DNA from: an uncultured delta proteobacterium
GTDB taxonomy: Bacteria > Myxococcota_A > Polyangia > Fen-1088
Direction of reading: 5' to 3'
NCBI GenBank assembly: GCA_963737265.1
Contig: CAVTRY010000022.1
Coordinates: forward strand, 362,973 to 426,972
Length of the DNA stretch: 64,000 nt
Positions 12,511 to 36,418 of this stretch are shown piece after piece. Within the stretch, counting starts at the first letter, position 1, and each line of letters begins with the position of its first letter. A program made the translations under genes and the position numbers. The notes beneath the pieces were generated by a model. The model saw only the letters and a program-made list of their open reading frames with translations. It ran no database searches and was not told where the DNA came from.

Positions 12511-14199
12511 TCAAACCTGCTCGCCTACAAGTTCATCCCTCAGGTAGCGTCCAACGGCAATCTCCAGATTGAAATGCATTCCTTCACGCCGCAGGATCTG
12601 TCCCAGCGGTGATCGTTGTACGACCGCCAAAACTCCGGGATTCATACCAATCAGCCACAGTTGAATGCCATCCTGACTTTGCCTCTGCGCAACTTGTGCG
12701 AACATTTTGAGCGCGGTGTACTCCATGTCGAGGACTCCGCTCGCGTCGACCGCGACGACTTTCGGTTGCGTTTCCCTGACCAGCGGCTCAATCTTGTGTG
12801 CGATCTGTGCCGCATTGGCAAAGAAAATTGGACCTTCCGGCCTCAGCAGCAGAAGGCCAGGAAAACTCTCATCCTCGGGATGTTCCGGCGATTCCGGCCG
12901 GAATACGTTGGTTCCGGGCTTACGCCGCAGGACATACACTGGAGCGTCGGCCACATGGTACGCCAGTGTGACCAGGGAAACGATAATGGCTACGATAATT
13001 CCCTTTAGGGTGCCGACGAGCACGACCCCTGCGAACGCCACGATCGCCCATGAAAATTCGGTCCTGCGAACGCTAAGAATCTCACGGAACTCGATCGGCT
13101 TAATAAGTCCGAAGGAATACACAATCACCAGCGCCGCCAAAGCAGCTTGCGGCATCATCGCAATGACTGGAGCGAGGAAGAGGGTTGTTACCAGTGCCAT
13201 CGCCGCGGTTACGATTTCGGCTAATTGCGTGCGAGCTCCTGCGCGCACATTGACCGCCGTCTGCGTTGTGCCACCGCCGCCGGGCATAGCACCGAAGAGC
13301 GCGCCTCCGACATTGGCGAGTCCGGTTGCAAGCAGCTCTCTGTCTGCTCGCGGCGCCGGCTCGTCATTTCGTACGAAGGCTCGTCCGGCCGCAACCGTCT
13401 CCGTGAAACTCATCAAGGCAATCCCTAATGCGCCGGGCCACAGCACGGTTATGAACGAAAAGTCTGGCTTCATCAGCGACGGCAATCCTGGCGGTATGTG
13501 GCCCACCAGTTCGACACCCCGATGTTGCAAATTCAAGAAGTAGGCGCCCGCTATCGCAGCAGCTACGGCCAGCAGCGGCGCTGGCAGTTTCGGCAGGAAA
13601 CGCTCCATGGTCAGCAGAATCGCCAGTACTGCGAGCCCGACGGCCAGCGTTGCTAACGACGTTTTTGGGAGGGTGTGAACTATTGAGAGGACGTTCTGAA
13701 CGAATGTGCCTCTTGTGAAGTGGATGCCAAGGATCTTCGGGATCTGGTCCACTACAATGACCAGCCCTATGCCGGCTCTGAAACCGACGAGCACCGGCTC
13801 GGAGATAAAGTTAGCCACGATTCCCAGGCGCAGCAGGTACGCCAGCAAAAGTGCGGCTCCCACCAGTAGCGCCAGCGTCGCTGAGGCTGTCAGCAGGGCT
13901 GCGGGGTTGCCGTTGGGCACGACCTGCCCCAACTGAGCGGCGGTCAGAATCGCCAACGTTGTAGTCGTGCTGACGCTGAGCACGCGCGAGGTCCCAAGCA
14001 CCGCGTAGATCACCATCGGCACCAGGGCGGTATAGAGGCCTACCTGCACCGGTAGCCCGGCCATCATGGCATACGCCATCGCCTTGGGAATAATTACCGC
14101 GCCGGTGGTCAGCCCCGCGACGATGTCGGGACGCAGCCAATCCGCATGGTATGGCACTAGCCAGTCCGGCAAAGCACGAGACCAGGGACGCGTTGACAT
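12511..14199 (-). CDS. SulP family inorganic anion transporter with STAS domain
   Basis: DIVAGLT..IPKAMAYAMMAGLP..GLY, many TM helices, C-terminal IFFANA..VDASGV STAS. Confidence 0.95.
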   Translation of the reverse strand: MSTRPWSRALPDWLVPYHADWLRPDIVAGLTTGAVIIPKAMAYAMMAGLPVQVGLYTALVPMVIYAVLGTSRVLSVSTTTTLAILTAAQLGQVVPNGNPAALLTASATLALLVGAALLLAYLLRLGIVANFISEPVLVGFRAGIGLVIVVDQIPKILGIHFTRGTFVQNVLSIVHTLPKTSLATLAVGLAVLAILLTMERFLPKLPAPLLAVAAAIAGAYFLNLQHRGVELVGHIPPGLPSLMKPDFSFITVLWPGALGIALMSFTETVAAGRAFVRNDEPAPRADRELLATGLANVGGALFGAMPGGGGTTQTAVNVRAGARTQLAEIVTAAMALVTTLFLAPVIAMMPQAALAALVIVYSFGLIKPIEFREILSVRRTEFSWAIVAFAGVVLVGTLKGIIVAIIVSLVTLAYHVADAPVYVLRRKPGTNVFRPESPEHPEDESFPGLLLLRPEGPIFFANAAQIAHKIEPLVRETQPKVVAVDASGVLDMEYTALKMFAQVAQRQSQDGIQLWLIGMNPGVLAVVQRSPLGQILRREGMHFNLEIAVGRYLRDELVGEQV

Positions 14200-14209
14200 G
14201 CTGCCAAGC

Positions 14210-15064
14210 CTACAGGTGCTGCGGGACGGTTCGATGATTGTGATTCGGCTCTACGTACCCTTTCGGCTTTTGCCTTGGCGGGAGCTTGGGAGGCGTATAA
14301 GGAATCTCCTCGTACCGGATGCTGTTGAGTATGTGCGCAATGCAGTTCAGGTGGGCGCGCTTTTTGTCGTCTGACGGAACGATGTGCCAGGGCGATGCTA
14401 CTGTATCCGTGGCTGCAAGCATCGCATCCCGGGCGCGTGAGTAGTCGTAATAACGGCGGTGCGATTCCAGGTCCATAGGACTAAGCTTCCAGCGCTTGGA
14501 AGGATCTTCAATTCGCGCCAGGAAGCGTTTGTGCTGTTCCTTTTCCGATACTTCCAGCCAGTACTTCAGAAGCGCGATGCCTTGGCTGACCAGAAAGGCC
14601 TCGAAGCTGGGACAGTCCCTGAGAAACTCGTTGTACTCCTCAGAAGTACAGAATCCCATCACATACTCAACACCGGCGCGGTTATACCAGCTTCGGTCGA
14701 AGATAACGACTTCACCTCCGGCGGGCAGTTGTTCAACGTAGCGTTGAGCATGGAGCTGCGTTTTCTGCCTCTCGCTCGGCGAGGGAAGGGCGACTACGCG
14801 AAAGATGCGCGGGCTGACCCGCTCTACGATGCGCTTGATCATGCCGCCTTTGCCGGCAGCATCTCGTCCTTCAAAAATGATCACAATTCGGGCGTTGGTC
14901 GCCTTGACCCAGTCCTGTAGCTTGACCAGCTCAACTTGTAGCTTGAAAATCTCGGCCTCGTACTCATCTTTACCGATCTTCGGTTGCCCGTTGACGCCGG
15001 ACTGTTGAGTGTTGCTGTCCAGCCTTGATTCTTGTTTCATGTTGTTTTTGGATTTCTTGCCCAT
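14210..15064 (-). CDS. ppk2: polyphosphate kinase 2
   Basis: FEGRDAAGKGG, FDRSWYNRAGVE, WKLSPMD motifs. Confidence 0.95.
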   Translation of the reverse strand: MGKKSKNNMKQESRLDSNTQQSGVNGQPKIGKDEYEAEIFKLQVELVKLQDWVKATNARIVIIFEGRDAAGKGGMIKRIVERVSPRIFRVVALPSPSERQKTQLHAQRYVEQLPAGGEVVIFDRSWYNRAGVEYVMGFCTSEEYNEFLRDCPSFEAFLVSQGIALLKYWLEVSEKEQHKRFLARIEDPSKRWKLSPMDLESHRRYYDYSRARDAMLAATDTVASPWHIVPSDDKKRAHLNCIAHILNSIRYEEIPYTPPKLPPRQKPKGYVEPNHNHRTVPQHL

Positions 15065-15084
15065 CGTTGCTTTCTGGCTCCTTG

Positions 15085-15228
15085 GCAGGCTGCAAAGAAA
15101 GTTAGTTTCGATAGCGTTTTGAAAGGGCACGACTTTAGTCGTGCCGATAAGCCCTTATTTTTTGCCATCCCGAGCGGACGTTAGTCCGCGAGGGACCTGC
15201 TTTTTCCGACTTTTTCACCAACCTCTTC
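15085..15228. repeat. composite REP-like palindromic element
   Basis: Perfect palindrome GGCACGAC-TTTA-GTCGTGCC (15126-15145), second hairpin CATCCCGAGCGGAC-GTTA-GTCCGCGAGGGACCTGC, imperfect terminal inverted repeats (AGGCTGCAAAGAAAGT / ACTTTTTCACCAACCT). Confidence 0.6.
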
Positions 15229-17576: not shown

Positions 17577-17826
17577 ATATGAATGTCCGATATTCGATTC
17601 GCTCCACCAGGGGGTGCTGACTTGCTCGGAGAACTGATAAACATTCCGACTGACACGCTCATCCACATGCTCTTTGTAATCCTCGCGGGCGAGGTCATTC
17701 TCACGGCGAAAGATGTAGCGGAAATTGTGGAGATTCAGTGTGAGTTGCAAAGAAGAGACGAGGGGAGCCACTGGAACTGGCGCGCTGTTAACTAAGACGC
17801 ACCGAACAGCGAAGGAAGGACTGAAA

Positions 17827-20283
17827 ATGACATTACTCGCAGATACGCAAGACTTGGCAGAGCCATTGAGGCCCGAGGGTACAGCGCGGTCTACTGTCCC
17901 GGGAGCGCCGCTAAGTGTCGATGAACTGAACAGGCTCGACGCCTTTTGGCGTGCGTGCAAGTACCTGGCTCTAGGAATGATCTATCTTCAGGCAAACCCA
18001 CTGTTACGGGAATCCCTGAAACCAAAGCACATTAAGAGTCGGCTCTTGGGCCATTGGGGCGCCAGCCCCGGTCTGGCCTTTATCTACATCCATCTGAGTC
18101 GCCTTATAAAAAAACATGACCTTGAGATGATGTTTCTCGCGGGGCCGGGCCACGGCGCGCCAGGCGTTTTGGCACCTGTGTATCTAGAGGGCACGTACAC
18201 TGAGATCTACCCAGAAAAAACCCAGGACGAAAAAGGCCTCCAGGAATTCTTCAAGCAATTCTCATTCCCGGGAGGAATCGGAAGTCACTGCACCCCGGAA
18301 ACCCCAGGCTCGATTCACGAAGGAGGCGAACTGGGCTATGTCCTCTCGCATGCCTGTGGAGCTGCTTTCGACAATCCTGACCTGATCGTCGCAGCTGTAG
18401 TGGGTGACGGTGAAGCTGAAACTGGCCCATTGGCGACCTCCTGGCACATTAGCAAGTTTCTAAATCCAATCCGCGATGGGGCTGTCCTACCTATACTTCA
18501 CCTTAACGGCTACAAGATCAACAACCCGACTCTGCTGGCAAGAATTACCCACGAAGAGTTGGAAAGCTTGTTACGCGGATACGGCTGGAATCCGTACTTT
18601 GTGGAAGGATCCGAACCTGACAGCATGCATCAGGCAATGGCCGCGACACTTCAGCGATGCACGGCCGAGATCAAGTCACATCAGGAAGAATGCCGCAAGA
18701 GTGGGACCGCGATCCGGCCACGCTGGCCCATGGTGGTGTTGCGATCGCCAAAGGGATGGGGTGCGCCGACGGAGGTGGACGGACATCGGATTGAAGGCTC
18801 TTGGCGCTCACACCAGGTTCCGGTGACAGACGTCAAGAGCAACCCCGAACATCTGCGCATTCTGGAGGACTGGATGCGGTCATTCAAGCCCGAGGAACTC
18901 TTCGACGAGAACGGAAGGCTGCGACCGGAGCTCGCCGAAATTGCACCATCCGGCTCGCGCCGCATGAGCGCCAGTCCTCACGCGAATGGAGAGCTCAGAG
19001 AAAAACTACTGTTGCCCGACTTTCGTGACTACGCCGTTAGAATCGAGAGCCCAGGGAGTCTGGAAGTCGAAAATGTGCCACCGCTGGGTACCTTCCTGCG
19101 GGACGTCATGAAATCGAACATGAGCAGTTTTCGGGTGTTTGCGCCTGATGAGAACACTTCCAACAAGCTGGATGCGGTCTATCAGGCTTCGAAGAAATTT
19201 TGGATTGCGGGAACTCTGCCCGAGGACAGTGATGGCACCGAACTGGCCTCCGACGGACGCGTTATTGAAATGCTTAGCGAGCACACTATGGAGGGCATGC
19301 TCGAGGGCTATTTGCTGACCGGTCGTAACGGCTTTCTCTCATCCTATGAAGCCTTTGTTCATGTAATCGACTCGATGTTTAATCAGCACGCGAAATGGTT
19401 ATCCATCTGCAATCAGTTATCTTGGCGCCGAAAGATCGCGTCTCTCAATCTTCTTATTACCTCAACGGTGTGGCGTCAGGATCACAATGGCTTCACGCAC
19501 CAGGACCCCGGGTTCCTCGACGTAGTACTCAACAAGAGTGCGGCAGTTACCCGTATCTACCTACCGCCGGATGCGAATTGTTTACTGTCCGTAGCAGACC
19601 ACTGCCTGCGATCTGAAAACTACGTCAATGTTATTGTCTCCGACAAGCAGCGGCATCTGCAATATCTGAATATTGACGCTGCCATTACTCACTGCACAAA
19701 AGGCATAGGCATCTGGAAGTGGGCCAGCAATGATGCAGATCAGGATCCTGACGTTGTCATTGCTGCAGCGGGCGACATTCCTACACAAGAAGCGCTGGCC
19801 GCCACAGTACTGCTCAGAGAACGGTTCCCCGACCTCAAGATCCGCTTTGTCAACGTCGTCGACTTGTTCAAACTACAACCGAACACTGAACATCCGCATG
19901 GCCTGACGGATGCAGACTTTGACTCTCTCTTCACCACCGACAAGCCGATCATCTTTAACTTCCATGGCTACCCCTGGCTGATTCACCGCCTCGCTTACCG
20001 TCGCACAAATCATCGGAACCTGCATGTGCGCGGCTACAAAGAGAAGGGAAACATTAATACCCCCATGGAGCTGGCGATTAACAATCAAACAGACCGCTTC
20101 AGTCTCGCCATCGACGCCATTGACCGCGTGGGAAAACTGCAGCGGGTAGGAGCGCATGCTAAAGAGGAATTTCGCGATTGCCAGCTTGCGTGCAGGCGCC
20201 ACGCTTACGAGTACGGAGTCGACAGCCCCGAGATTGGCGGTTGGAAGTGGCCTTCGGACAAGGATGAAGTGATGGGCTCGTAG
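17827..20283 (+). CDS. xfp: xylulose-5-P/fructose-6-P phosphoketolase
   Basis: LLGHWG, GPGHG, EGGELGY, TPP motif [28 protein letters not shown]. Confidence 0.97.
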
Positions 20284-21799: not shown

Positions 21800-22726
21800 G
21801 TGCAGCTAATGGCGTTCCCAAGACTGAAGCAGCTCACAGCCCCGGCGACCGGCCGTAGCTTTCCAATAGGGGCTACGCTGATAAACGGCGGTACCAATTT
21901 CTCAATCTTCTCCCGGACTGCCGCCAGCATTGAGCTGCTGCTTTTTGATAACGTGGATGACGCTCGCCCTTCCTGTGTGATTCCCATCGATCCCTTAGCG
22001 AACCGCACGTACCATTACTGGCACGTATTCGTGCCCGGGGTGAAAGCGGGTCAGGTCTACGGATTCCGGGCCTTCGGGCCGTTCCAGCCAGATCGGGGTC
22101 TCAGGTTCGATCCATCCAAGCTACTGCTCGACCCGTATGCTCGTGCTATCGTGGTCCCCAAAAACTATTCCCGTGAGGCAGCCCGTCGGGAAGGCGACAA
22201 CCTAGCGACGGCCATGAAGAGCGTGGTCACGGACCCGCACGCGTATGACTGGGAAGGTGACGTGCCCCTGAAGCGGCCGTGGTCGCGCAGTATCATTTAC
22301 GAGATGCATGTGCGCGGTTTTACCGCACATCCCAGCTCCGGTCTGCCAGAATCGAAACGTGGTACGTACGCCGCATTAGTCGACAAGATCCCCTACCTTC
22401 GGCAATTGGGGGTTACCGCGGTCGAGCTGCTTCCCGTCTTTCAGTTTGATCCCCAAGACGCGCCTCGGGGCCGAAGAAACTACTGGGGTTATTCCCCGGT
22501 TGCATTTTTTGCACCGCACCAGGCATACAGCTCGCGTCAGGAACGGCTGGGCGCGGTTGATGAGTTTCGAGACATGGTGAAGGCGCTGCACCGAGCCGGC
22601 ATCGAAGTGATTCTGGACGTAGTCTTTAATCACACGGCGGAAGGCGGACAGGACGGCCCAACACAATGCTTCCGCGGACTTGATAATCCGACTTACTACC
22701 TCCTGGGGGCAGACCAATCACTTTAC
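21800..22726 (+). pseudogene. glgX: glycogen debranching enzyme, 3' truncated at junction
   Basis: PIGATL..GGTNFS, LLDPYAR, IYEMHVRGFT, VELLPV, NYWGY, VILDVVFNHTAEG; stops before the GH13 catalytic GFRFD region. Confidence 0.9.
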
Positions 22727-24340
22727 CGGGTAAGCGGCATTCACTCCTACTACGCCAGCGATGATGACAGGAATCGGACGAAGCTCGTGCTGGAGGCCCT
22801 GATCCGCTCCTTACCGGAGAGATCCATGCGCCTGCAAGTGCGATTTGAGATTGCCGAAGGAGCTGACGACCTGATCGCACGCTACAACCGGGAGCAACAG
22901 AATCCCAGCGCGGTTCTTCAGGCAGTAGATCGCGAACAATCCGACCTCTGGCTGAAGAAAAACGCAGAGGGCTATTACCTGCAACAGCTGCTGCACTTCT
23001 ACTTCATCTGGGACCCGCGCATCCACCACCAGTCGCCGGAGGTGGAGTGGAAAAAGAAGATGCGCAGTTCGAGCTTCAGCATGTCGGCCAACAAGTGCAT
23101 CGAGCGCAGCCGGAGAGAGCATGAGGACCTGGTCGCCGAGTTCAACAGTCTGATGTCCGGAGTCGAGGCCTCGCTGCAGGCCACCGGCATGAAGATCGAG
23201 CGGCTCACGCAAAACGACATTTTCCTGGAGGTCAAGCGGGCCCTCAATCCGCTCGTGAACGACAAACGGCCGTTTCTTCCTCCGAGAGAATCGCTGGTGT
23301 ACGAGAGTGCGCGAAGCCAGATGGCCAGCGTCAACATCGAGGATGAACTCGATGAGCACGTCAAGATCGGCGGACTACTGTACTCGTTCATCAGCCTGAA
23401 AGACCTTCCCGACGCCACCTTCCCTGGAGTGTTGCGGGAACTGGTGGTGATGGACTTCCCGATCATCATCAACGCCGAAGTTGTACTTCCCGATCAGACG
23501 AAGGCGGTGAAGCAGTACAAGAGCCGGCTGCGCAAAATGACTGCGGCACAGAAGGACATCCACGGAGGGTTCCGGCTCAATGTGGACGCCCAGGTGGCGG
23601 AGCATCAACTGATCAAGGTCCTGCAGGAGTTGATTTCGAGCTCGCTGAAATCCTGCCAGCTCAGCCTGACCATTGCCGTCCGCACCTCACGTGCAGCCCG
23701 CAATCGCTTTGAGGCGGAGGAAGCGGAACGCACTCTTGCCGATCGCCGGCAGCGGGTGTTGCACGCCATCGGGCGCATGAACGGCGCACGCGGGATTCCG
23801 GAGACATTGGCGCAAAAGCGCTTCTTCTTTTCCAGTCTCCCGGGACTCGGTGAGATCAACAAGCGGGAAAAGGATGTTCTCACCCTTCACGCAGCCGACC
23901 TGCTGCCGGTGGAGATGCCATGGAAAGGAACGCCCAATTCTCCGTTGATGCTGTTTGAAACTCCCTACCGCCAGCTCATACCGTTCTCGCCGTTCGATTC
24001 CGGGTTGGGTGACGCCAACATGCTCATCATGGCGAAGAGCGGTGGAGGCAAGACGTTCCTCGCGCAGCTCAAGCTGTTGATGATGGCACGTGCCCGTCCG
24101 CTGGTGTCGATTCTGGAGCGCGGGGATTCTTACGAACCGCTGGTCGATCTGATGGGCGGCCGTGTGATCAATGTCGATCTGGATGGCAGAGAGACGCTGA
24201 ATCCGTGGGACCTCCCGGAAGGCGAGACGGGTCCCAGCAATGAGAAGACGGCATTTCTGAAGAACCTGACGCGGCACATGCTCGGCGACAGTCATAACTC
24301 GGACACGTCGCTGCTGGACAACGTGCTCACCGATGCGATT
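22727..24340 (+). CDS. virB4: VirB4-like T4SS ATPase, truncated at both ends
   Basis: DLLPVEMPWKG, FSPFD...ANMLIMAKSGGGKT (Walker A), ILERGDSY, LNPWDL; Walker B half missing. Confidence 0.85.
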
Positions 24341-24470
24341 ACGCAATCCTGCAATCGCTGATGTCCGCGCTTCAGATCACCGATCCGATGCAGTTTAACG
24401 GATCGTGGCTGCAGGCGTTTGTCGGCTCCAGCCAGATGATCGTGATGAGTGTCGCCAGCGTGCTGTTGGC
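24340..24470 (+). pseudogene. internal fragment of a hydrophobic VirB6/TrbL-like protein
   Basis: Frame from 24340 reads YAILQSLMSALQITDPMQFNGSWLQAFVGSSQMIVMSVASVLLA (TM-rich); not in ORF track. Confidence 0.45.
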
Positions 24471-25105
24471 GATCATGGTTGCCGGCTCTCAACCGATGGT
24501 GTCGCTGCCGTTGCCCAGGCGCAACTGCAGCTGAGAGGCACACTGGTCCTTCATTCGGAAACCGCTGCAAGAAACGGCGGGGATTTTGACTTCGATATGG
24601 TGTGCCTGGTCGAGGACAACCGTTTTCCACGGTTCGTCGCAGACCGGTGCGCCTACGAGGAACAACACACCGCCACTAAGAAGAAGAACCCTAAACCTCC
24701 AGTCCCTGGTGGAACCTTCCGCAAGTTTCAATGCAGGCCCGCGGAAATCAGATCGGCGCCATAACCGATTTGAAGACCTCGTGCCTGGCAAAAGGAAGGC
24801 CAGACCTGGCGCGGGAATTGGTGGACCAGCTTCAGAATGCGCTGGATCAACTGAAGCACGGTACCCAACCCGATCAGGAGGTCATCCGCAATATCCGCAA
24901 CGATGTGCCCACAGCGCCTTGGCTGAAGCTGAAACAGAAACGACGGATCGAAGACATGGACGAGCACATTGAAGTCGATGCCAACGATAAGGTCGGAAGA
25001 CTCTACAACTTCACGCGCAAGGAACTGGGGCGGTTCTTCGGTAGTGCCGCCACGGCGCGCTTGAGCGATTTCCGGGGAGTAATCGGAGGTCAGAGCTTTA
25101 ACTAA
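24470..25105 (+). pseudogene. fragment of a double-psi-beta-barrel (two-barrel) RNA polymerase-like protein (frameshift ~24700)
   Basis: GTLVLHSETAARNGGDFDFDMVCLV (DxDxD at 24582-24596), followed after a frameshift by WWNLPQVSMQARGNQIGAITDLKTSCLA...LARELVDQLQNALDQLKHG. Confidence 0.65.
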
Positions 25106-25182
25106 CCATAACCGTCCAGGAGACTTCGGAGGGAGTCTCCTGGATGTACAACATTCGGACTGAAGGAAGGAACAAACAAGCC

Positions 25183-26062
25183 ATGAGACGCGTTGTGTTG
25201 ATGTTCGCAGTGCTGGCCGCGGTACTTGTCCCGGCTGTTGCGCAGAAGATTGAGACCGAAACCAGTGACCGCACCCGCATCGTCCATCTGAAGACGGCGT
25301 TGAACCACCTCACGGTCATCGAGGTCGGCGAACCGGTCGTGCAGGTGGCAGCCGGGAGCCCATCATTCAAGGTCGAGTGGCGGGAAAACAAGGTATTTGT
25401 CCAGCCCACCGAAGCCGATGCCGCAACCAACTTGTTCATCTGGACGGCCAATCAGCGCCTGAACTACGAACTGGAGCCCGCCGACTCGGTGACAAACATG
25501 GACTTTGCCGTCGACCAGGCGCCTGTGCACCTGGAGCCGGTTAAGCCGACGGCTGCGACTGCGCCTGTCCCGGTTTCGCCATCGATAACCGAACTGCTGC
25601 TCACGGGAAAGCCAATTCGACTTCTGCCCTCAAAGCAGCGCGCCTCGAAGCCGGTCGAGGTGTGGATCAGCGACCTGTACGAAAAAGATGGCCGCCTGTT
25701 GGTTCGCTACACCGTCTGCAACCACGGCACCGAACCATACGCCATTGACACCCCGCTGGTGTACCAGTTGGACGGGGTGCGGTCTGCCCAGTCCTTGTAC
25801 GGCCTACAGAACTCGCAGTTGGGCGACGAGCAAGCGGCCAAGCTCAAGATCAAGCAAGAGACGCCGGTGAAGAGTGCTGGATGGTCAGACCCAGACCGCG
25901 CGGATTGCTCCGGGCGAAGAAGCGGTTGGCGTGGTGGCCCTGGAGATGGCGTCAGGCACACAACCCACAGTCCTGCGCTTCCAGTTCTCCAGCTCCAAGC
26001 AATCGGAAGACGGATTGAGCAATGGCCCACAGACTCAGATCGCCGCATTTCTGGTGCGATAA
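25183..26062 (+). CDS. VirB9/TrbG/TraK-like conjugative transfer protein (frameshift ~25870)
   Basis: Signal peptide; LNHLTVIEVGEPVVQVAAGS..F..EWRENKVFVQP...TNLFIWT...YEL pattern. Confidence 0.7.
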
Positions 26063-26089
26063 GCGCCGAAGCGCAACCAGAGGCAAAAC

Positions 26090-26314
26090 ATGGCAGATCC
26101 ATTCACCGTCAAGCCGGTTTACAACGCGCTGAGCCAATACATCCGCAATCGAGCGGACATTGGTGCGGGCAGGGCCATGCGTGACGGTGTGCTGGAACCT
26201 TCCAACCCGTTTGAACGAAAAGCCGCGAGGCCACCCAGACGCTGGTTTGTGTTGTTGTCTCTCCTCGCCGCGATGGTGTTTGGCTTCTTTGTTTACTTTA
26301 ACAACCTCCTGTAA
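26090..26314 (+). CDS. small membrane protein of tra cluster
   Basis: 74 aa with C-terminal TM helix, GAGG RBS. Confidence 0.6.
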   Translation: MADPFTVKPVYNALSQYIRNRADIGAGRAMRDGVLEPSNPFERKAARPPRRWFVLLSLLAAMVFGFFVYFNNLL

Positions 26315-26318
26315 GGCT

Positions 26319-26580
26319 ATGAATATGAACGATAAAAACGATGCAAACGAAGTAAACCTCCCGCCCCAACCGAGCTGGGCAGCGATGCGCGAGAGCAGAT
26401 TCGCGACTGGGAGTTTCTCTTCTGGGCTTTCCTGCTGTTCGGCTTGGCTCGGCTGGCTGGCTGTATCTCTACCGGCCGGAGAACAATGCCTTTCATTTGG
26501 GCCTCTCGTGCGGGTTCGTGTTCTGCGGCGTCCTGGGGTTTCTCATGCGCTGGGTGTTTAGCCCGAAGAGGAGGAAATAA
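26319..26580 (+). CDS. small two-TM protein (frameshifted)
   Basis: Pieces WEFLFWAFLLFGL and GWLYLYRPENNAFHLGLSCGFVFCGVLGFLMRWVFSPKRRK* in successive frames, ending just before virD4. Confidence 0.45.
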
Positions 26581-26582
26581 TA

Positions 26583-28367
26583 ATGATGCGCGAATCGTAC
26601 GCCAACCGGCAGCAGAACCCGCCAGTCCTGGAGAGCATGGAGATCGTGGTCGCCCTCGTTCTGATGGCGGTGTGCTGGTTCTCCTGGTACGTAGCCCACG
26701 AGCGTTACAACTTGACGAACCGCCAGATTGCCGAGGTGGCATGCTACCTGGCTCTCGGCGGCTTGGCCATCGCCGGCTCCGCCATATTGATTGCCACCGC
26801 GCGCTCCCGCCGGGAGAAGCAATGGCCCCATCCACCGATGGTTGTCTCCCGCAAACGGGACGAGCAGTTTACGTCCGAAGCCTGGAAGCAAGACGCCGTG
26901 GTCCTCGGCTACGACATCCACGGCAAGCCTTGGTACTGGCCGGACAGAGTGCGCGTCATGCAGGGCATCGTGCTGGGCATGACCGGGTCCGGCAAGACCA
27001 CGCTTCTGAAGAACATCATTACGCAGGACATGGCGCGCGTGGTCGGCACTCCGAAGGATCCACACCGGTTGCCGATGGTGATCTTTGATGGCAAGGGGGA
27101 TCTCGAGTTCTTTTACGATCTTCTGCCGCACGTCCACCGAGCCGGACGGCTGCATCAACTGCGAGTCCTGAATCCCGCGCGCCCGGATATTTCCGTCCGG
27201 TACAACCCGTTCTACTGCAACGACGAGGACTACATGGCCGTCGTCAACATGGTCTTCGGCTCCTTCAACCTGCACGACGAGTTCTTTGCCAAGCACCAGT
27301 TGAACTATCTGGCCGACATCGTTCGCGTGCTGGTGTACACCGGCCGGAAGATCAACGTCTATGACGTGCTGGTCGCGGCCATTGACGAACAGGTGCTGCG
27401 CGAACAGGTCGAAAAGGCACGTCAGCGACTGGAACACGACCCATCCATTCCCGTGCAGCGCCGCCTGAACTTCGAGATGTCGGTTAGAAACCTCTACCAG
27501 TCGTTTGCAGACCGCGAGCGTGTGCCAAAGATCCAGGGCTTGGTCAACGAGTGTATGACGCTTCTCGACGATGAACTGAGCGTGATCACCGGCCCGTACG
27601 AGGATCTGTTGTCGCTGGATGAAGTGATCGAGCAGGAGCTGATCCTGTTCGTCACCTTGAACGTCAACAAGAACACCGAGCCGGTACGGGCTCTGGGGAA
27701 GATGCTGTTGCAAAACCTGCAACTGGTCGTTGGCAAACGGTACGAGAGTGAGGAACAGCGGCGGCGCACCAACCGCCCGATGTTCAGCGTCGTGTTGGAC
27801 GAGTTTGCGCCGTTCGGATACCGGAACTTCGCACAGATCCTGCAGACCGCCCGCGGCACTCACACGGCGTTTCTGTTCTCAATGCAAAGCCTGCCGCAAC
27901 TGATGCAGGTCGGCCGGGGCTTTAAGGAAGACGTAACCTCGGCGCCGAACACGACTCTGACGTTGCGCACCCGCGACGAGGAAACGGCCCGCTATTTCTT
28001 GCGGGCCTCGGCCGAGCACACCGTCACCCGGCGCAGCGTGTCGATGCACCGCCAGCGACTATTTGGTTACGAGAAGTACGAGGCAACCGACCGGGCCACG
28101 GAGAGCGAAGACCGTGAGACCCGCGCACTCGATGAGCACATCAAGAATCTTCCCAAGGGACAGATGGAGATTCTGATGACGGATGACACGCGCGGCACAT
28201 TGCACCAGTTGTTGCACGTCCGTCCGCCGCAGGATGTCACCTTCCCGAACTTCGAGCCGAAGTTGTACCCGCGGCTGCTGGAATCCGTGGAGGAATCAGC
28301 TGGCGCGAACCTGCGGTTCAAAACGCCTGAGTTGGCGGCAACCACCCGTTTTGCCCGTCGCGGATAA
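26583..28367 (+). CDS. virD4: VirD4/TraD-like type IV coupling protein
   Basis: Two N-terminal TMs, GMTGSGKT, IFDGKGD, YNPF, VVLDEF, ARG...MQSLPQL. Confidence 0.92.
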   Translation: MMRESYANRQQNPPVLESMEIVVALVLMAVCWFSWYVAHERYNLTNRQIAEVACYLALGGLAIAGSAILIATARSRREKQWPHPPMVVSRKRDEQFTSEAWKQDAVVLGYDIHGKPWYWPDRVRVMQGIVLGMTGSGKTTLLKNIITQDMARVVGTPKDPHRLPMVIFDGKGDLEFFYDLLPHVHRAGRLHQLRVLNPARPDISVRYNPFYCNDEDYMAVVNMVFGSFNLHDEFFAKHQLNYLADIVRVLVYTGRKINVYDVLVAAIDEQVLREQVEKARQRLEHDPSIPVQRRLNFEMSVRNLYQSFADRERVPKIQGLVNECMTLLDDELSVITGPYEDLLSLDEVIEQELILFVTLNVNKNTEPVRALGKMLLQNLQLVVGKRYESEEQRRRTNRPMFSVVLDEFAPFGYRNFAQILQTARGTHTAFLFSMQSLPQLMQVGRGFKEDVTSAPNTTLTLRTRDEETARYFLRASAEHTVTRRSVSMHRQRLFGYEKYEATDRATESEDRETRALDEHIKNLPKGQMEILMTDDTRGTLHQLLHVRPPQDVTFPNFEPKLYPRLLESVEESAGANLRFKTPELAATTRFARRG

Positions 28368-28384
28368 GGAGAGAGGACACGACC

Positions 28385-29201
28385 ATGAAGCGAACGATCG
28401 CAATCGTCACACTCGCAGTGGTGGGACTGATCACAGCCGGTCCTGCCATCGCACAGCAACGGCCGCAATCTCCGGTTGCGTTACGTGGGCAACGACAGGC
28501 GCAGCCCCAGGGGCAACGACAAGCTCCGCCGGCGCGTCCGATGTACCAACGCCGTGACACCTGGTACGAGTTCCTGCTCAAGCAGTTTAATCCCAGCAAT
28601 TTCGATTACGGCGCGTGGATCGAAGAACGGCGTCAGGTGTTCCTCGACGCAAGCGTGCGGAACCCGTACTTCAAGTACAGCTTCGGCACGACGATTGCGC
28701 TGCATGTTCATGGCCGTGCTGTGCACCAAGCAATGGATCGACCACCGTCGCGCCATGTGGATTACGGCGGAGATGATGACGGATTTGTACAACCACGATC
28801 TCTACTCGCGGGAAGTCGCTGAGAAGGCGATCCAGAAATACAACCAGCACATCGAACGCTGCAACCGCGCAATCGAAGCTGCCCAACATGGTAGTGCGCT
28901 ACCGGTGGCGACTGCAGACGCGGATCAACTTAACGCCCAACTGCAAAAGACCGCAGGCGAACTTAACGTGGCAAACACGGACAACGCCGCTCTCCAGGAA
29001 CAGCTGACGCAGAAGTCCAACGTGATTGTGGAGTTGTCCTTGCGAGTGGACGCTCTGTTAAAGAAGAATGGCGGAAACTTGGCAAGCTTGCAGCCGATTG
29101 ATCTGAGCGGTGCTGACCCTAACCTGATAAAGCATATCAACGACCTGCAAGAGCAACTGGTTGTCGAGCGCAAGAAAAACCGGCAACTCAAGGGTGCATA
29201 A
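28385..29201 (+). CDS. membrane-anchored coiled-coil protein (frameshift ~28700)
   Basis: Signal peptide, TM segment and long coiled-coil C-terminus across two frames. Confidence 0.6.
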
Positions 29202-29203
29202 CG

Positions 29204-29749
29204 GTGCTGGTCGCGGTGACAGAATTTGGCAGCGTGTGGCGCAGGCGATTCAGCAAGAACGAACATGACCTGAACCGGTTTGCCCATGGAGCCTACTTCA
29301 ACACAACCGGTGTGATGGTGAACGGCCACGTGCGACAGCGCCCGCTAGTTCTTGGTTACGCAAAGTTCAACGGCGCCGGCGGCTTCGATCCTAACTTTCC
29401 TTCCCGAATGATCAATCGTGTTTTCGAGTGTGCCGATATGTGCGTCTGGAATGGCGCGAACAAACTTCTGTTCCGGCGACTCCTTCCTCACGGCGAGGTG
29501 CCTGACTTGTTCCTGGTTGTCGCTCGGCCTGATGTCACTGGAAGACTATTGATGGGTTCGGAGGGCTGGCGGTCCGACGACACCTGGCTGCTGGCGTTCA
29601 GCGAAGACGGGCAACGGCAGGAAGCCATGTTGCTAATGCCGGCACATGCTTGGATCCGTAGCGTGCTGGGAACGTTCGTACTGGAACCGCGCTCAACTCC
29701 ATGGATTGCAACCTTGCGCCTGCAGGACTGCGCCAAGGCGGCGAGGTGA
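29204..29749 (+). CDS. hypothetical protein of conjugative backbone
   Basis: 181 aa, tightly coupled to neighbours (2-3 bp gaps). Confidence 0.6.
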   Translation: MLVAVTEFGSVWRRRFSKNEHDLNRFAHGAYFNTTGVMVNGHVRQRPLVLGYAKFNGAGGFDPNFPSRMINRVFECADMCVWNGANKLLFRRLLPHGEVPDLFLVVARPDVTGRLLMGSEGWRSDDTWLLAFSEDGQRQEAMLLMPAHAWIRSVLGTFVLEPRSTPWIATLRLQDCAKAAR

Positions 29750-29752
29750 GAT

Positions 29753-30520
29753 GTGCGCTACCCGAAAGACAGTCTGCACTTGGGCCGCGAACATGATTAT
29801 CCTTTACTGCGGCAGCTTGCGCACTCCCGCTTTGCCACGCGCAGCCAACTGTTCGAATACATGCAGCTACGCGGTTGTAGCGAATGCCGCCGGTCATTCA
29901 ACTGGAGAACCCAAAGGCTCATTCAGCATGACCTTGTCAGCAGACGGACGGTGCCCGCGTTGGGAGCGGAGTACGTCTACGCGCTGACGACGCATGGCGC
30001 CGTAACTCTGGAAGAGATCGAGCAGCGCTTCTCGCTCTCGCTGAGTGCGGATCGCAACCAGGGTGAAGACCTGAGCGTGATCCACTCGGTCGAACTCAAC
30101 AACATCGAACTGCGAGTGGCAAAAGCCGGGCTGTTGGCACGATGGATCCCGGAAGCAGAGATCCGCTCGGAGAACGCACTGACAAACCTGGCCTACAGGA
30201 AAGAATACGACGCCGTTGTCACGTTGCGGCTCGGCAGCCGCGAGGTGACATTTGCGTTGGAGTACGAACGGACGCCCAAGTCTCGAAGTAAATATGACAA
30301 GATCGCGGAGGATATGTGCCGGGAAGAAAACGTGGATCACTTCCTGTACTTGACTGCCAACGAGCATTTGCTGAGGTTCGCGTCCTGGTCCTTCCGAGAT
30401 CTTCAGCGGCGTGTCTATTTCGGGCTTGTCACAGACTGGCACCGGCAGTTGCTCGACATGCCAGCCTTCAGTTGGAAGGCGAAACGGTATGTTCCACTCA
30501 AGACTTTGCTTGCTCAATGA
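29753..30520 (+). CDS. replication-relaxation family protein (MOB_C-like relaxase)
   Basis: N-terminal wHTH (RFATRSQL...VYALT..G), HSVELN, W..E, YDAVV...FALEYERTPKS PD-(D/E)XK-type motif. Confidence 0.8.
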   Translation: MRYPKDSLHLGREHDYPLLRQLAHSRFATRSQLFEYMQLRGCSECRRSFNWRTQRLIQHDLVSRRTVPALGAEYVYALTTHGAVTLEEIEQRFSLSLSADRNQGEDLSVIHSVELNNIELRVAKAGLLARWIPEAEIRSENALTNLAYRKEYDAVVTLRLGSREVTFALEYERTPKSRSKYDKIAEDMCREENVDHFLYLTANEHLLRFASWSFRDLQRRVYFGLVTDWHRQLLDMPAFSWKAKRYVPLKTLLAQ

Positions 30521-31639
30521 CGGCGCGGCCACACGCGAACTTTCTCCAGTTTTGGCCCCAAACGACAATGGCGACGCGACGGAACCAACTCAATAGTCTC
30601 TTGGAACAAATGGGACTTGGCCCGAGGCACCAGACGTTGGCTGAGCTGTCTGGCGGTTCTGGCAGCCGAGGTTTAAGCGGTATGCCTACCCTTTGCCTGC
30701 CTGTTGTCTGCTCATTGCCTGCTCGGGGGTACTCGCAACTATTCGTATTCTCAATGAGATGCGGCTTGACTACTCCCCCATTCATGCAGGTTTTGCCTAT
30801 AAAACGACGGAACAGTTGTGGCATTCGCGCGCGCTATTGCGATGCATTGTGTGCAGCCATGATGACGCAGTTCTTGTACATGCTGAGTTGCTCGTTCCGG
30901 TTAGGTGTTCCGGCAGTTGCGGCGAAACTGTGCGCGCGCAAGTTGCACAAGCTGGTCCGGCGACACGCGCGGGTTGTGCGCACAGCAGTGGTTCGGTTTG
31001 GGCGATGAATGTACACGGCTATCGTTCGAGCCGCGCGGCGCTGTGTTGTGCGACTGATCCACCAGCATCGGTGGGGACATCCGTTGCCAATTGTTGTTAC
31101 TTACGCGCTGGTTGTTGCCGAACCGTGTGCATGGGCTGGTGCAAGACGAGTGGCAAGGTGCAAGCTCGTTTGAGATTCACTCTGCGTGGTCAGTCTGCGC
31201 CGTCGTGTGCACACTGCTGTGTAAGGATGCGCATCAGATGCACGCGGCTGTCGATTCCGGCTGCGAACGAGAATGCGCAGCTGATGTGCGAATCTTCGAA
31301 CTACGGCCGTGTGCCGGTTGCCACGGATGTTAACGGCGTTGTGGTGATGCTCGGGAGATGGACGTGCTCTTAGCACTCATGCACCGCTTGTTACATGGCG
31401 ACCATACATTCCGGTTTGCTCACTCAGGATGAATCAGGGATCAACTTGCGTACGCTCCCCCCACACCCACTGTGAGCGAACGAGTTCACTCGTTGCGGTT
31501 CGCTTACCGGGGAGACTAGAGACAAATATAATCAGCCGACGCCGGGTCGGTGGGTCTGGCGCAAGGGCAAACCTATTTCGTTTCTGGTGACGAATTGGTC
31601 ACGGGTGTTCCTCGGCCTGTGCTGAAAAGAAACGGTTGC
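30521..31639. other. non-coding region, candidate oriT
   Basis: No credible ORF; many GTGCAC-like words and palindromes; nested hairpin at 31472-31507; adjacent to relaxase. Confidence 0.4.
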
Positions 31640-34482
31640 TCACCACGGTGACAGTGTCGGAACCGGCGGGCACTTTTCAACTTGAAGATATTTCTTACAG
31701 CCTTCGTCGGAGGGATGGGCTGTGACACGCTGTTGGGCAAGTGCCATCAAGTCGCGAATGTCCATGGCATAAATTTGCACCAATCCGTCCCACCCCGCTG
31801 TCGATAGTCGCCTGCTGTCCGGGCTCCAGGCCACGTCCGTAACGGCATCGCTGTGTCCGTACAACGTCAGCACTTCCTGGCCACTGGCGGCATCCCACAC
31901 GTTGGCCGTATTGTCTCCGCTTGTCGTCGCCAGACGCTTCCCGTTTGGGCTCCAGGCCACGCTCTTACCGGCATCGTTGTGTCCGTACAACGTCAGCACT
32001 TCCTGGCCACTGGCGGTAACCCACACCTTGGCTGTATGGTCCACACTGCCCGTCGCCAGGCGCTTGCCGTCCGGGCTCCAAGTCACGCCGCCACGAGAGT
32101 CGCTCTCGCCGTGCAGGGCCATCAGTTCCCGACCGCTGGCCGCATCCCACACCTTGGCCGTGCCGTCAAAACTCCCAGTGGCGACCCGCTTGCCGTCCGG
32201 GCTCCAGGCCGCACCCTGAACACCCCTGCTATGGCCGCGCAAAGTCAGCTGTTCCTTGCCACTGGTGGCATCCCACACCTTGGCCGCACCGTCCCAACTC
32301 CACGTCGCTAGCCGCTGTCCGTCTGGGCTCCAAGCTATGCCCTCAACCGGTTTGTCGTGGCCGCGCCAGGTCAGCAGTTTCCGGCCGCTCACGGCATCCC
32401 ACACGGTGTTCGTGCCGTCCCCACTCCCCATGGCCAGCCGCTTGCCGTCCGGACTCCAGGTCACGCTGTAAACACCTTTGCCATGGCCGAGCAAGGTCAG
32501 CTGTTCCTGGCCGCTGGCGGCATTCCAAATCTTGGCTGTGCCATCGTTGCTCGCCGTCGCCAGCCGCTTGCCGTCCGGGCTCCAGACCACGCCGTTAACC
32601 CAACCGTCATGGCCACGCAAGGTCAGCTGTTCCTGAGTGGCGGCATCCCACACCTTGGCCGTCTTGTCATTGCTCGCCGTTGCCAAGCCGCTTGCCGTCC
32701 GGGCTCCAAGCTACGCTCATAACAGCAGCGCCATGGCCGCGCAGGGTGAGCAGTTCCCGCCCGCTGACTGCATCCCAAAGCTTCGCCGTATTGTCAAAAC
32801 TTGCCGTGGCCAGCCGCTTGCCGTCCGGGCTCCAAACCACGCTCCAAAACTGAATCGCCATGGCCGCGCAAGGTCAACAGTTCCCGTCCACTGTCTGCAT
32901 CCCATACCTTCGCCGTCTTGTCAAAACTTGCCGTTGCCAGCCGCTTGCCGTCCGGGCTCCAAGACATGCTGTAAACAGCTTCGCCATGGCCACGCAAGGC
33001 TTGCAGTTCGTGGCCGCTGACAGCATCCCACACCTGGGCTATGCCTTCCACACTCCCCGTCGCCAGACGCTTGCCATCCGGACTCCAAGCCATGCTGCCA
33101 ACGGAATTGCCACGATCGCGCAGGACTATCCGTTCCTGTCCGCTTGCCGCGTCCCACACCCTAGCCGTACCGTCCCAGCTCCCCGTCGCCAGACGGTTAC
33201 TGTCTGGGCTCCAGGCCACGATACGAACAGCTTTGACATGGCCGCGCAAGGTCAGCAGTTCCTGCCCGCTGTCCACATCCCACACCTCTGCCTCACCGTC
33301 CGCACTCCCCGTCGCCAACTTAATGCCATCGGGACTCCAAGCCATGCTGTCGACACGACCTCCACGAACGTGTAAGGTGAGCAGTTCGCGGCCGTTGGCC
33401 GCATCCCACACTTTGGCGGTCTTGTCCCCACTCCTCGTCGCCAGACGCTTGCCATCCGGGCTCCAGGCCACGCCGTCAACACCTTTGGAATGGCCGCGTA
33501 AGGTCAACTGTTCCTGGCCGCTAGCGGCGTCCCACACCTTGGCCGTTTTGTCCGCACTCCCCGTCGCCAGCCACTTGCCGTCCGGGCTCCAGGCCACGCT
33601 GTCAACAGAATCGCCATGGCCGCGCAAGGTCAGCCTCACATGGGACGCCATGATGGCATGATGTAATTCGTCTTCGGCTTCGGGAAGAACGCTGTGACCC
33701 CACGGCCAGGTTGCGCCCACTGCATGGGCCGCTAACAAGATCGAAAGCTCGGGATCAGTGTCCTCATTTGAGATGGAGCTTGCGACCAACTGCCGAGCTC
33801 GGGCCCTAGCAGTCTGCCAGAAAGCGTAGATAGCCAGACCCACCGCAATCAGAAACGCGAGGGACACGGCTGCAATAACGATCCGTTGCAGCTTGGTCGC
33901 GGCCTGGCGGCTGGCCAGGATGTACTGCGACTGTAGCGTCGTCGGCGACGGTTCTTTTCCTGAACTCTTGGCGACCCATCGCTCCGCGTCACGGAGGTCC
34001 TTGCCCCGGAGCACGAGGCTGCTGTCTTTGCCCCCTCTTTCCCACTCCTTGGCGCGCATCAGCAGGCGAGTATGCGCCTGCGTCCAAGCCAGGTCGGTAT
34101 CCAGCGCTATGATTAGCGCCGCGAAGTTTTCGTCGAATCGAACATCGCCATCAAAGTCGATGCGCTGAAACTTGCCGAGCGTTTCGGGGATGGCGTCATC
34201 TGGAACCGCGCGATAGAAGATCGGAACCATGCGCTTGTGGGTGGCCACTGCATGATCGATCTCTTTCCTGCAGTTGGCGGAAGCTACCGATTCCGGACTG
34301 ATGATGAACAGGAAATTGTCGGCAGCTTCGATGTTGGCGAAGATTTCTTGCTGCCACTCTGCCGTTAGCGGAATGTCTTTCCAATCGACCCAGGCCTCGC
34401 GCTCCTGCGCTGCAAGAGCTTCGCCCAGCTTGCTCACGAAGTCTTTATCTTTCCGAGAGTACGAGATGAATACCTGTGCCAT
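31640..34482 (-). CDS. TIR domain + TM helix + ~15 WD40 repeats (frameshifts ~32850, ~32690)
   Basis: VFISYSRKD...WVDW..I...[25 protein letters not shown] (TIR_2 with catalytic Glu); [24 protein letters not shown]; repeated [23 protein letters not shown]. Confidence 0.92.
31770..33640 (-). repeat. ~126-bp tandem coding repeats (WD40 array)
   Basis: Recurring + strand words such as CGCTTGCCGTCCGGGCTCCA and GCATCCCACACCTTGGC at ~126-bp period. Confidence 0.9.
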
Positions 34483-35332: not shown

Positions 35333-35443
35333 CAGAAAAAATATTCCGGGTTATCTAACGACACCCACATCCGAAAGCCGGATGGGGAAATGGCGAACAC
35401 GAGCCCCGAATTCGCGAATTTGTCAGAAGGAGGTGACGGGTTA

Positions 35444-36418
35444 ATGGAACCGACAATCACGGCAACCCGGCAGGTCGTCGAGGATTACCAAAGGCTGTTC
35501 GTGAACCGCCGAGCCTACACGATGCAGTCCATGCGGCCGCACCCGGAAACAGGGCGGCATTACTACTTTCGGCCAAGCAAGAAAGGGACAGACATCCCCC
35601 AGATGCTGACCGAGGGAACCATCCGACAACACCTGGAAGGCAAAATCACGGTCGGCCTGTATGCCATCAACCCGTCAACCCAGCGCTGTAAATGGGTCGC
35701 CATCGACGCTGACTACAAGAACTCCATGGAGGACTTGCTCAAGCTCCAGTACCACTTGACACAGGACAAGGTGGAACCAGCGCTGGAAATGAGCAAGCGA
35801 GGAGGGCATCTTTGGATCTTCCTGGCAACGCCCCTGCTGGCCAAGGAGTGCCGAATCTACATCCATGATCTTGCCCTGAGGTTGGGGGTGCCGGTGAAAG
35901 CGTCGGGCTTGGCGGAAGGCATCGAGGTGTTTCCGAAGCACGACGCCATCGGCGCCGGAGAGTTTGGCAACGCCATTCGCGGTCCCCTGGGAATTCACCG
36001 TGGTGCTAACCGCCGATTTTGGTTCTACGGCGCCGATTACACGCTGGAGGACCAGATCGCATACCTCAAACGTCTGCGAAAGGTCACCGAGGAAGAACTG
36101 CGGAGGTTCATCGCTGGGAAGGAAAGGCCGGAGCCGGATTTCTCGCCGCGTCCAGGAAGGGTCACTTCAACGCTACGAAAAACTGGGAACGGACGATCAG
36201 AATTCCGCATTTTGGCACACGTGGGTACCGTGCGGAAAGTCGGCCGGAATTACGTCGCGCGATGCCCATCCTGCGCGGACTGTGGCCACGACCGGAGCGG
36301 CGACAACCTGGCCATCCTGATCGAAGATCCGCGCTTTTACAAATGCTGGGCTGGATGCACCAAGGAGATGATTCGGGCCGCCCTCGGCTGCCCGATTCGT
36401 GTGCGGCATTCCGCCTGA
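35444..36418 (+). CDS. archaeo-eukaryotic primase (TOTE-type AEP) with C-terminal Zn-binding domain
   Basis: HLEGKITVGLY, WVAIDAD (DxD), LEMSKRGGHLWIF (SxH motif), EVFPK, GNAIRGPLG; C-terminal CPSC...D..L.I...KCWAGC. Confidence 0.8.
   Translation: MEPTITATRQVVEDYQRLFVNRRAYTMQSMRPHPETGRHYYFRPSKKGTDIPQMLTEGTIRQHLEGKITVGLYAINPSTQRCKWVAIDADYKNSMEDLLKLQYHLTQDKVEPALEMSKRGGHLWIFLATPLLAKECRIYIHDLALRLGVPVKASGLAEGIEVFPKHDAIGAGEFGNAIRGPLGIHRGANRRFWFYGADYTLEDQIAYLKRLRKVTEEELRRFIAGKERPEPDFSPRPGRVTSTLRKTGNGRSEFRILAHVGTVRKVGRNYVARCPSCADCGHDRSGDNLAILIEDPRFYKCWAGCTKEMIRAALGCPIRVRHSA

Follow-up and report, generated by a model that had tools for sequence, protein, structure and literature searches.

The DNA analysed here, a 64,000-nucleotide (nt) stretch of contig CAVTRY010000022.1 in assembly GCA_963737265.1 (hereafter the window), carries at 24476-25105 a short piece of a polymerase gene among remnants of a conjugative type IV secretion system (T4SS). 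We consider it very probable, in a single judgement covering both points, that this piece is a dead pseudogene remnant inside a relic element and that the family to which it belongs is a single-chain two-barrel RNA polymerase (RNAP) of the QDE-1/RDR type. The polymerase is a fixed T4SS-operon member in intact integrative conjugative elements (ICEs) of Terriglobia, and the interest of the locus rests on this intact family, to which the window adds a decayed copy only.

A frameshifted fragment of a two-barrel polymerase

Two overlapping open reading frames (ORFs), 24405-24764 (119 amino acids, aa) and 24731-25105 (124 aa), share 34 nt, and a first-pass annotation of this DNA had joined them into one protein across a 1-nt frameshift near 24700. 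All of the peptides that it quoted are found in the translations, the DFDFD part in frame 3 and the GNQIG and LKHG part in frame 2, so that LHSETAARNGGDFDFD on the one hand and GNQIGAITD and LDQLKHG on the other belong to two different frames of the fragment region. Alignment of the DNA with four intact loci (alignment A2; L004, L018, L011 and L022) located the frameshift as one G missing directly after 24700, a base that is present in contigs from all four soil metagenome and metatranscriptome runs aligned to the window. Since the two parts adjoin without a gap in full-length relatives, the proposed join is correct. The length of about 210 aa given in the annotation was likewise borne out: by DNA alignment to the intact loci, the fragment comprises codons 491-700 of 949 (210 codons), followed at once by the native last codon and stop. 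Its motifs lie at 24582-24596 (DFDFD), 24743-24757 (GNQIG) and 24851-24862 (LKHG), and the parts are as follows:

24476-24700, + strand: polymerase part A, in the frame of ORF 24405-24764, codons 491 to ~565; last barrel A strands and Mg-binding loop
24700-24701, + strand: 1-nt deletion site; the G of intact copies is absent between both bases
24701-25099, + strand: polymerase part B, in the frame of ORF 24731-25105, ~codons 566-700; post-loop helices with invariant GNxIG and LKH
25100-25105, + strand: native last polymerase codon and stop, brought next to codon 700 by deletion of 746 nt (blastn, window 25100 = L036 12846)

Protein searches with both pieces revealed a large family. Piece A (71 aa) gave 587 protein matches at E <= 0.01 (best ~5e-31), most of them 940-950 residues long and named "hypothetical protein", and piece B (135 aa) matched 106 cluster representatives at E <= 0.001, with a best value of 1.2e-77. 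Both pieces align to uninterrupted segments of ~949-aa proteins at 92-95% identity, a similarity far above chance. From the family we aligned 26 diverse members (alignment A1), which are 26-83% identical to the full-length relative P0002; parts A and B match the resulting profile at positions 429-501 (E 4e-25) and 497-632 (E 1e-55), respectively. Domain libraries were less informative. Pfam returned chance-level matches only on both window pieces and none on the full-length relatives P0002, P0036 and P0085, and NCBIfam returned none for the polymerase of L004. In three of the 26 A1 members, the Pfam model of RNA-dependent RNA polymerases (RdRPs), PF05183, is matched weakly (13.6-16.0 bits). 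These matches cover profile positions 429-560 of 582, which correspond to the region preserved in the window, and are consistent with the QDE-1-like helix that the first-pass annotation had described downstream of the loop.

For the full-length homologues, the prediction is a two-barrel fold in which the second barrel is also present. A model of P0002 folded with A1 has a predicted local distance difference test score (pLDDT) of 83.2 and a predicted template modelling score (pTM) of 0.80; of its elements, E513-515, E532-537 and the helices 542-690 (P0002 model numbering) survive in the window. Foldseek against PDB gave 27 matches at E <= 0.001, and among the matches listed these are to RDR2, QDE-1 or phage single-chain RNAPs: 7w82 comes top at 8e-14 (maize and Arabidopsis RDR2, 8e-14), QDE-1 follows at ~1e-12, and P74 gp62, P32 gp64, crAss-like phi14:2 gp66 (9e-5) and P23-45 gp96 also fall within this threshold. 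In structural alignment with VIA-align, maize RDR2 reached Z 21.7 over 615 residues (root mean square deviation 5.6, model 8-840), QDE-1 Z 19.3 (model 5-840) and phage P32 gp64 Z 15.9, whilst unrelated helical rows stayed at Z 9.4 or less. The best matches in BFVD are phage proteins with an RdRP annotation. In this predicted model, then, the closest relatives of the family are cellular RdRPs and phage single-chain RNAPs.

The annotation had also relied on a comparison with the beta' subunit of bacterial RNAP, on the strength of a shared LH-x9-DxDxD spacing. The spacing itself is indeed the same in the organism's own beta', which is of the same superfamily; a six-frame translation of the genome holds three such sites, namely beta', the window fragment and one stop-ridden frame. 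As closest relative, however, beta' was rejected: its best-placed chain, 2a6h_D, the only beta' chain among the Foldseek matches listed, comes at rank 38 with E 0.23, as against RDR2 and QDE-1 at the top.

The catalytic residues point in the same direction as the fold. A passage in Ruprich-Robert & Thuriaux (PMC2919709) gives eight residues as invariant in two-barrel RNAPs, which in QDE-1 are D709, R738, K743, R962, P964, D1007, D1009 and D1011. The family has D152, R228, K237, R460, P462, D527, D529 and D531 in the same order, D152 being kept in 25/25 A1 members and each of the other seven in 26/26; D152, R228 and K237 sit in a strand-rich segment of the model (131-276). Of the 163 proteins spanning the loop region, 158 retain the complete aspartate triad, which is conserved throughout A1. 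The window and its close relatives carry DFDFD rather than the DxDGD loop of PF05183 type. Across A1 the residue between the second and third aspartates is F in 15/26, G in 9/26 and Y in 2/26, and this mixture indicates that DFDFD is a lineage variant of DxDGD.

Several observations weigh against this identification. The fold evidence is a single, predicted AlphaFold (AF2) model; the PF05183 gathering cut-off of 23.8 bits is reached by none of the 26 A1 members (best 16.0); phmmer and A1 profile searches of the PDB sequences yielded coiled-coil noise only (E > 3); and the correspondence of D152, R228 and K237 with QDE-1 D709, R738 and K743 is drawn from order and spacing, and so remains presumptive. 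In addition, the triad is substituted in five of the 163 proteins (P0023, P0079, P0128, P0135 and P0219), through D-to-H or D-to-N changes or degeneration of the loop; these five could be additional copies in decay or variants that lack catalytic function.

Screening one genome per species yielded 42 loci, all in metagenome-assembled genomes (MAGs) of Acidobacteriota. The A1 profile had no match among 400 other genomes of the class (two candidates scored per genome), and piece B had one weak match (E 6.7e-4) among 400 other genomes of the phylum; the gene is sparse among species representatives. Two parts of the protein vary within the family. A helical insertion of ~50 residues inside barrel B (P0002 159-217) is found in four of the 26 A1 members (P0002, P0036, P0085 and P0158), is shorter in a few others and is absent from most. 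The C-terminal tail (P0002 ~890-949, pLDDT < 50) is variable, basic and predicted to be disordered; a motif D/N-G-K-x-x-F ... Q-R-P is common to the tails of ~10/26 A1 members and could be a recognition signal.

Decay of the window copy and the operon of intact elements

The loci closest to the window, L036 and L018, share 90-96% DNA identity with it in five collinear blocks, tabulated here as four stretches:

22724-24360: virB4, ~codons 42-580
24340-24483: p420, codons 200-247
24476-25100: polymerase, codons 491-700
25100-31388: last polymerase codon and stop, virB9, virD4, p271, p181 and relaxase; collinear with L036

Four junctions lie within 2.4 kb, comprising a left-end truncation at 22724 and three internal deletions. 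Microhomology at the internal junctions amounts to 3 nt (VirB4-p420), ~8 nt (p420-polymerase) and 1-2 nt (codon 700-last codon), lengths that fit deletion by illegitimate recombination better than a k-mer misjoin. The polymerase has thereby lost barrel B (D152, R228, K237), RxP (R460, P462) and the C-terminal third, and has kept the DxDxD loop, the final strands of barrel A and the helices that follow. Given the absence of the lost parts the window copy is unable to polymerise, and a fragment of 210 codons cannot form the two-barrel fold. Most T4SS genes were removed by the deletions as well, VirB8 being absent from the window. The earlier claim that this element encodes its own polymerase therefore needs dividing: it stands for the family and its T4SS linkage, but the copy in the window is frameshifted and consists of the barrel A tail and helices only. 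Similarly, the flanking T4SS genes that had been described are real but mostly fragments (pieces of VirB4 and p420, a frameshifted VirB9), with VirD4 apparently whole.

Two other origins of the junctions were considered and rejected. A k-mer chimera at the VirB4-p420 junction was suggested by a 21-nt blastn overlap, of which only 3 nt proved to be real microhomology on inspection. Rearrangement mediated by insertion sequences would concern the 562-aa ORFs at 12511 and 32794, which are unrelated (a SulP transporter versus a TIR-WD40 protein); the long repeats are WD40 only.

The mosaic could also be an artefact of assembly or binning, in an organism that really has an intact element. The data that favour this explanation are the same that count against a genuine relic: the genome bin comprises 25 contigs with 7.6% contamination, a fraction of 0.31 of the sampled words occurs in the best-matching public run, and contigs from four public runs end at 22724, 24340, 24476-24498 and 25100, none of them bridging a junction, so that the junctions appear in no other data set. 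Yet a k-mer join would need more than the 1-8 nt shared at the junctions, the DNA flanking each junction comes from one element lineage with 90-96% identity to L036, and the pieces are arranged collinearly with the intact operon, as nested deletions predict. Moreover, both pieces and the A1 profile match this locus only, with no second polymerase copy or other piece of the gene anywhere in the assembly. We accordingly regard an artefact as very unlikely. Even less credible, and in our view close to negligible, is that the 124-aa ORF 24731-25105 is still made and has been recruited to another function, such as regulation or inhibition. This ORF is open, has an ATG start and is 93% identical to the intact proteins, but such high identity fits recent decay equally well, its native stop is reached only through the geometry of the deletion, and it spans a few helices cut from a large domain. 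No stand-alone homologue of this extent was seen, and none was sought; the short matches of piece B are contig-end fragments of varied extent. The window shows the loss of such elements by stepwise microhomology deletions.

Soil RNA library X15 contains a 383-nt contig over 24476-24777 that represents the intact form of the gene, with the G and with upstream sequence as in L018; because DNA can occur in such libraries, this contig is only a weak hint of expression.

We then compared the intact loci, using the genes of L004 as queries. The conserved order is p461, p109, virB4, p285, p272, p420, virB8-like, p107, p145, polymerase, virB9/CagX-like, virD4, p271, p181 and a Replic_Relax relaxase. 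Where the upstream flank measures 2 kb or more, T4SS genes are present on that side in 32 of 33 loci (exception L044); for the downstream flank, with the same minimum length, the count is 32 of 35 (exceptions L013, L031 and L044). The three exceptions look like further truncated copies. In L004, VirB4 (P-loop_TraG, 5e-16), VirD4 (3.5e-14) and Replic_Relax (27.4 bits, cut-off 25.3) score above the Pfam cut-offs, and VirB8 (22.1 bits, cut-off 23.2), CagX/VirB9 (25.8 bits, cut-off 34.2) and p420 (TrbL_P, E 0.0055) below them, in the case of p420 by a wide margin; the cluster comprises the VirB/VirD4-type conjugative T4SS and relaxase set, which in the window is incomplete. The first-pass annotation had named the lack of a two-barrel fold, of a conserved aspartate triad or of T4SS linkage in homologues as findings that would speak against it; all three were examined and none occurred.

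Truncated or interrupted polymerase copies occur in further public genomes: besides L013, L031 and L044, we observed them at L035, L036 and L039. The L013 polymerase ends at codon 818, with virB9 and virD4 absent downstream, and L044 is a lone piece (codons 422-940) without T4SS genes within 8-10 kb. Decay of the element seems common.

The other annotated genes of the window are the following, with T4SS homologies in terms of L036 and L004:

12511-14199, - strand: SulP/STAS sulfate permease; chromosomal, left of the relic
14210-15130, - strand: PPK2 polyphosphate kinase; chromosomal, left of the relic
17725-20283: XFP phosphoketolase; chromosomal, left of the relic
21800-22723, + strand: GlgX-type glycogen-debranching N-terminal piece (~308 codons); Pfam CBM_48 7e-13, Alpha-amylase 5e-13 (ORF residues 23-281)
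22724-24342, + strand: VirB4/TraC-type ATPase fragment, ~codons 42-580 of 893, both gene ends lost; blastn 95% to L036 2627-4264, tblastn 92% to L004 VirB4; weak Pfam TraC_F_IV, P-loop_TraG and CagE_TrbE_VirB
24340-24483, + strand: p420 membrane-protein piece, weakly TrbL/VirB6-like, 48 codons (200-247 of 420), read as a portion of a 57-aa ORF (24361-24534); blastn 90% to L036 7500-7644, tblastn q200-247
25144-26062, + strand: virB9/CagX-like, apparent frameshift near 25870 (three-frame translation); Pfam CagX 3e-6 (below cut-off), tblastn q1-231 of 293
26583-28367, + strand: virD4/TraG-type coupling protein, apparently whole, 594 aa; T4SS-DNA_transf 6e-14, TraG-D_C and TrwB_AAD_bind above cut-offs, 92% to L004 VirD4 q41-630
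28476-30520, + strand: p271 and p181 homologues and a Replic_Relax relaxase-like gene; tblastn, Replic_Relax 3.5e-5, 24.4 bits (cut-off 25.3)
31640-32686, - strand: WD40-only ORF adjoining the TIR_2-WD40 gene; offset self-matching at ~70-75% identity from WD40 repeats
32794-34482, - strand: TIR_2 and WD40 protein, conflict/defence-type
35390-36418: AEP-TOTE gene ('TOTE conflict system' primase domain)

At the left edge, the chimeric ORF 21800-24361 (853 aa) joins the glgX piece in-frame to the internal virB4 piece. Homology to intact elements begins at this join (22724), other soil-run contigs diverge at 22724-22727, and the join is the left deletion edge of the relic. The end of ORF 25144-26184 is out of frame and rich in Arg and Gly; the genuine C-terminus of virB9 continues in ORF 25874-26062. 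To the right of the relic transfer genes, the TIR-WD40 and AEP-TOTE genes resemble cargo with a conflict or defence function.

Possible roles of the intact enzyme

Two features speak for an active polymerase that is produced when transfer occurs: the conservation of its catalytic residues and the constant position of its gene within the mating-pair genes. We posit, as a tentative proposal that has some way to go before it could be called probable, that the intact enzyme makes RNA on conjugation-derived single-stranded DNA. It would be produced together with the mating apparatus, would synthesise RNA on the transferred strand, as a primer for complementary-strand synthesis or as first transcripts, and might be carried into the recipient with the DNA, in the manner of virion-carried phage two-barrel RNAPs. 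Known enzymes offer analogies: QDE-1 is described in a passage of PMC9508822 as having DNA- and RNA-dependent activity, the crAss-like phi14:2 polymerase is packaged in the virion according to the title of its PDB entry, and the P23-45 virion RNAP transcribes pre-early genes, as summarised in part of a preprint (bioRxiv 10.1101/2022.12.01.518664). If an intact enzyme does prime or transcribe the transferred single strand, this would explain, for these elements, both the conversion and the first expression of the incoming strand, and the family would offer an accessible bacterial system in which to study how the polymerases of RNA interference (RNAi) arose. Counting against the proposal is the AEP-type primase domain gene of the element (35390-36418), which could make a priming role redundant.

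Two other activities have to be weighed. The enzyme might be a YonO-like transcriptase of the donor, transcribing the element's gene block from double-stranded DNA independently of host RNAP. YonO itself, in an excerpt of PMC5467207, is a processive DNA-dependent RNAP that transcribes the late operon of prophage SPbeta, and the structural neighbours P32 gp64, P74 gp62 and P23-45 gp96 are phage transcription enzymes; the gene, however, lies inside the operon to be transcribed, among mating-pair genes, and not ahead of it like a regulator or early gene, and we consider this role rather unlikely. That the enzyme is RNA-templated, and makes double-stranded RNA or antisense RNA for attack or counter-defence upon entry into a new host, appears less likely again, and indeed improbable. 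The best structural matches are RNA-silencing RdRPs, TIR-WD40 and AEP-TOTE conflict-type genes lie in the same element region, and RdRP-like two-barrel domains are predicted in secreted rhizobial type III effectors in a passage of PMC13667924. Nevertheless, the fold does not fix the template, as QDE-1 uses DNA too (PMC9508822, in the same passage), and no RNA-processing partner was identified in the scan of the operon genes, the majority of which lack a family match.

Synthesis of RNA on the transferred strand, the role that we favour, can be extended into a broader and more doubtful reading, in which the acidobacterial enzyme would be the conjugation counterpart of the virion-packaged phage RNAPs, acting on the transferred strand perhaps after its own passage through the T4SS, and conjugative elements would be a candidate source of the eukaryotic RNAi polymerase. 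The argument made for this is that the family is the bacterial protein whose predicted fold is closest to QDE-1/RDR2 over the whole catalytic core. Were it true, the window would be a fossil of such an element.

Comparison with known systems

To our knowledge, none of the bacterial RdRP relatives on selfish elements has been assayed outside phages. Prokaryotic RdRP- and YonO-like enzymes have been recognised before, by computational prediction, on phages and selfish elements. A literature search found no T4SS operon described as containing a polymerase of two-barrel or RdRP-like type, though the original papers of Iyer & Aravind and their supplements may describe one. RdRP-like or YonO-like single-chain two-barrel proteins have been predicted on bacterial selfish elements, with a primase role proposed (Ruprich-Robert & Thuriaux 2010; Iyer & Aravind 2011/2012, as cited in a passage of PMC3417536), and by sequence analysis these proteins are of the same class as the family described here (excerpts of PMC2919709 and PMC3417536). 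They differ in setting: the passages concerned place them in firmicutes, cyanobacteria and two members of the Cytophaga-Flavobacterium-Bacteroides group, and on elements with restriction endonuclease (REase)/URI nucleases or RNase H, and make no mention of Acidobacteria or a T4SS operon. Text from PMC5512222, on polyvalent proteins, leaves RdRP, YonO and double-psi unmentioned; its references include the conjugative primases RP4 TraC and ColIb-P9 Sog.

With QDE-1 of Neurospora and Thielavia and RDR2 of maize and Arabidopsis (PF05183), the family shares a predicted core of ~615 aligned residues that includes both barrels, the neck and the head helices (Z 19-21.7), the eight invariant two-barrel residues in the same order and, in some members, the DxDGD loop. 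Sequence identity is nevertheless 12-15%, and no member reaches the Pfam cut-off. The family further differs from cellular RdRPs in being bacterial, in its place in a T4SS operon and in having no RNAi partners among the operon genes scanned; the window lineage has DFDFD, and the window copy is a fragment. The likeness to beta' lies in the loop spacing and the superfamily, whereas the structural match is remote and the family has both barrels in one chain.

The phage single-chain RNAPs belong to the same superfamily (Z 15.9 for P32 gp64, 15.5 for P74 gp62 and 11.6 for P23-45 gp96), and they and the family are both encoded by mobile elements. Among the PDB and BFVD fold matches listed there is no YonO chain. 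The phage proteins are shorter, or are embedded in giant proteins such as the virion RNAP fused to the tape measure protein, and match less of the family model. Some phage enzymes are delivered with the DNA into a new host, whereas for the ICE enzyme co-delivery is only proposed. Conjugation has its own precedent in the primases RP4 TraC and ColIb-P9 Sog, which are transferred to recipients and whose folds are unrelated to two-barrel polymerases. We propose these primases as a possible functional analogue of the polymerase described here, each being an element-encoded, RNA-making enzyme that would serve the incoming single strand.

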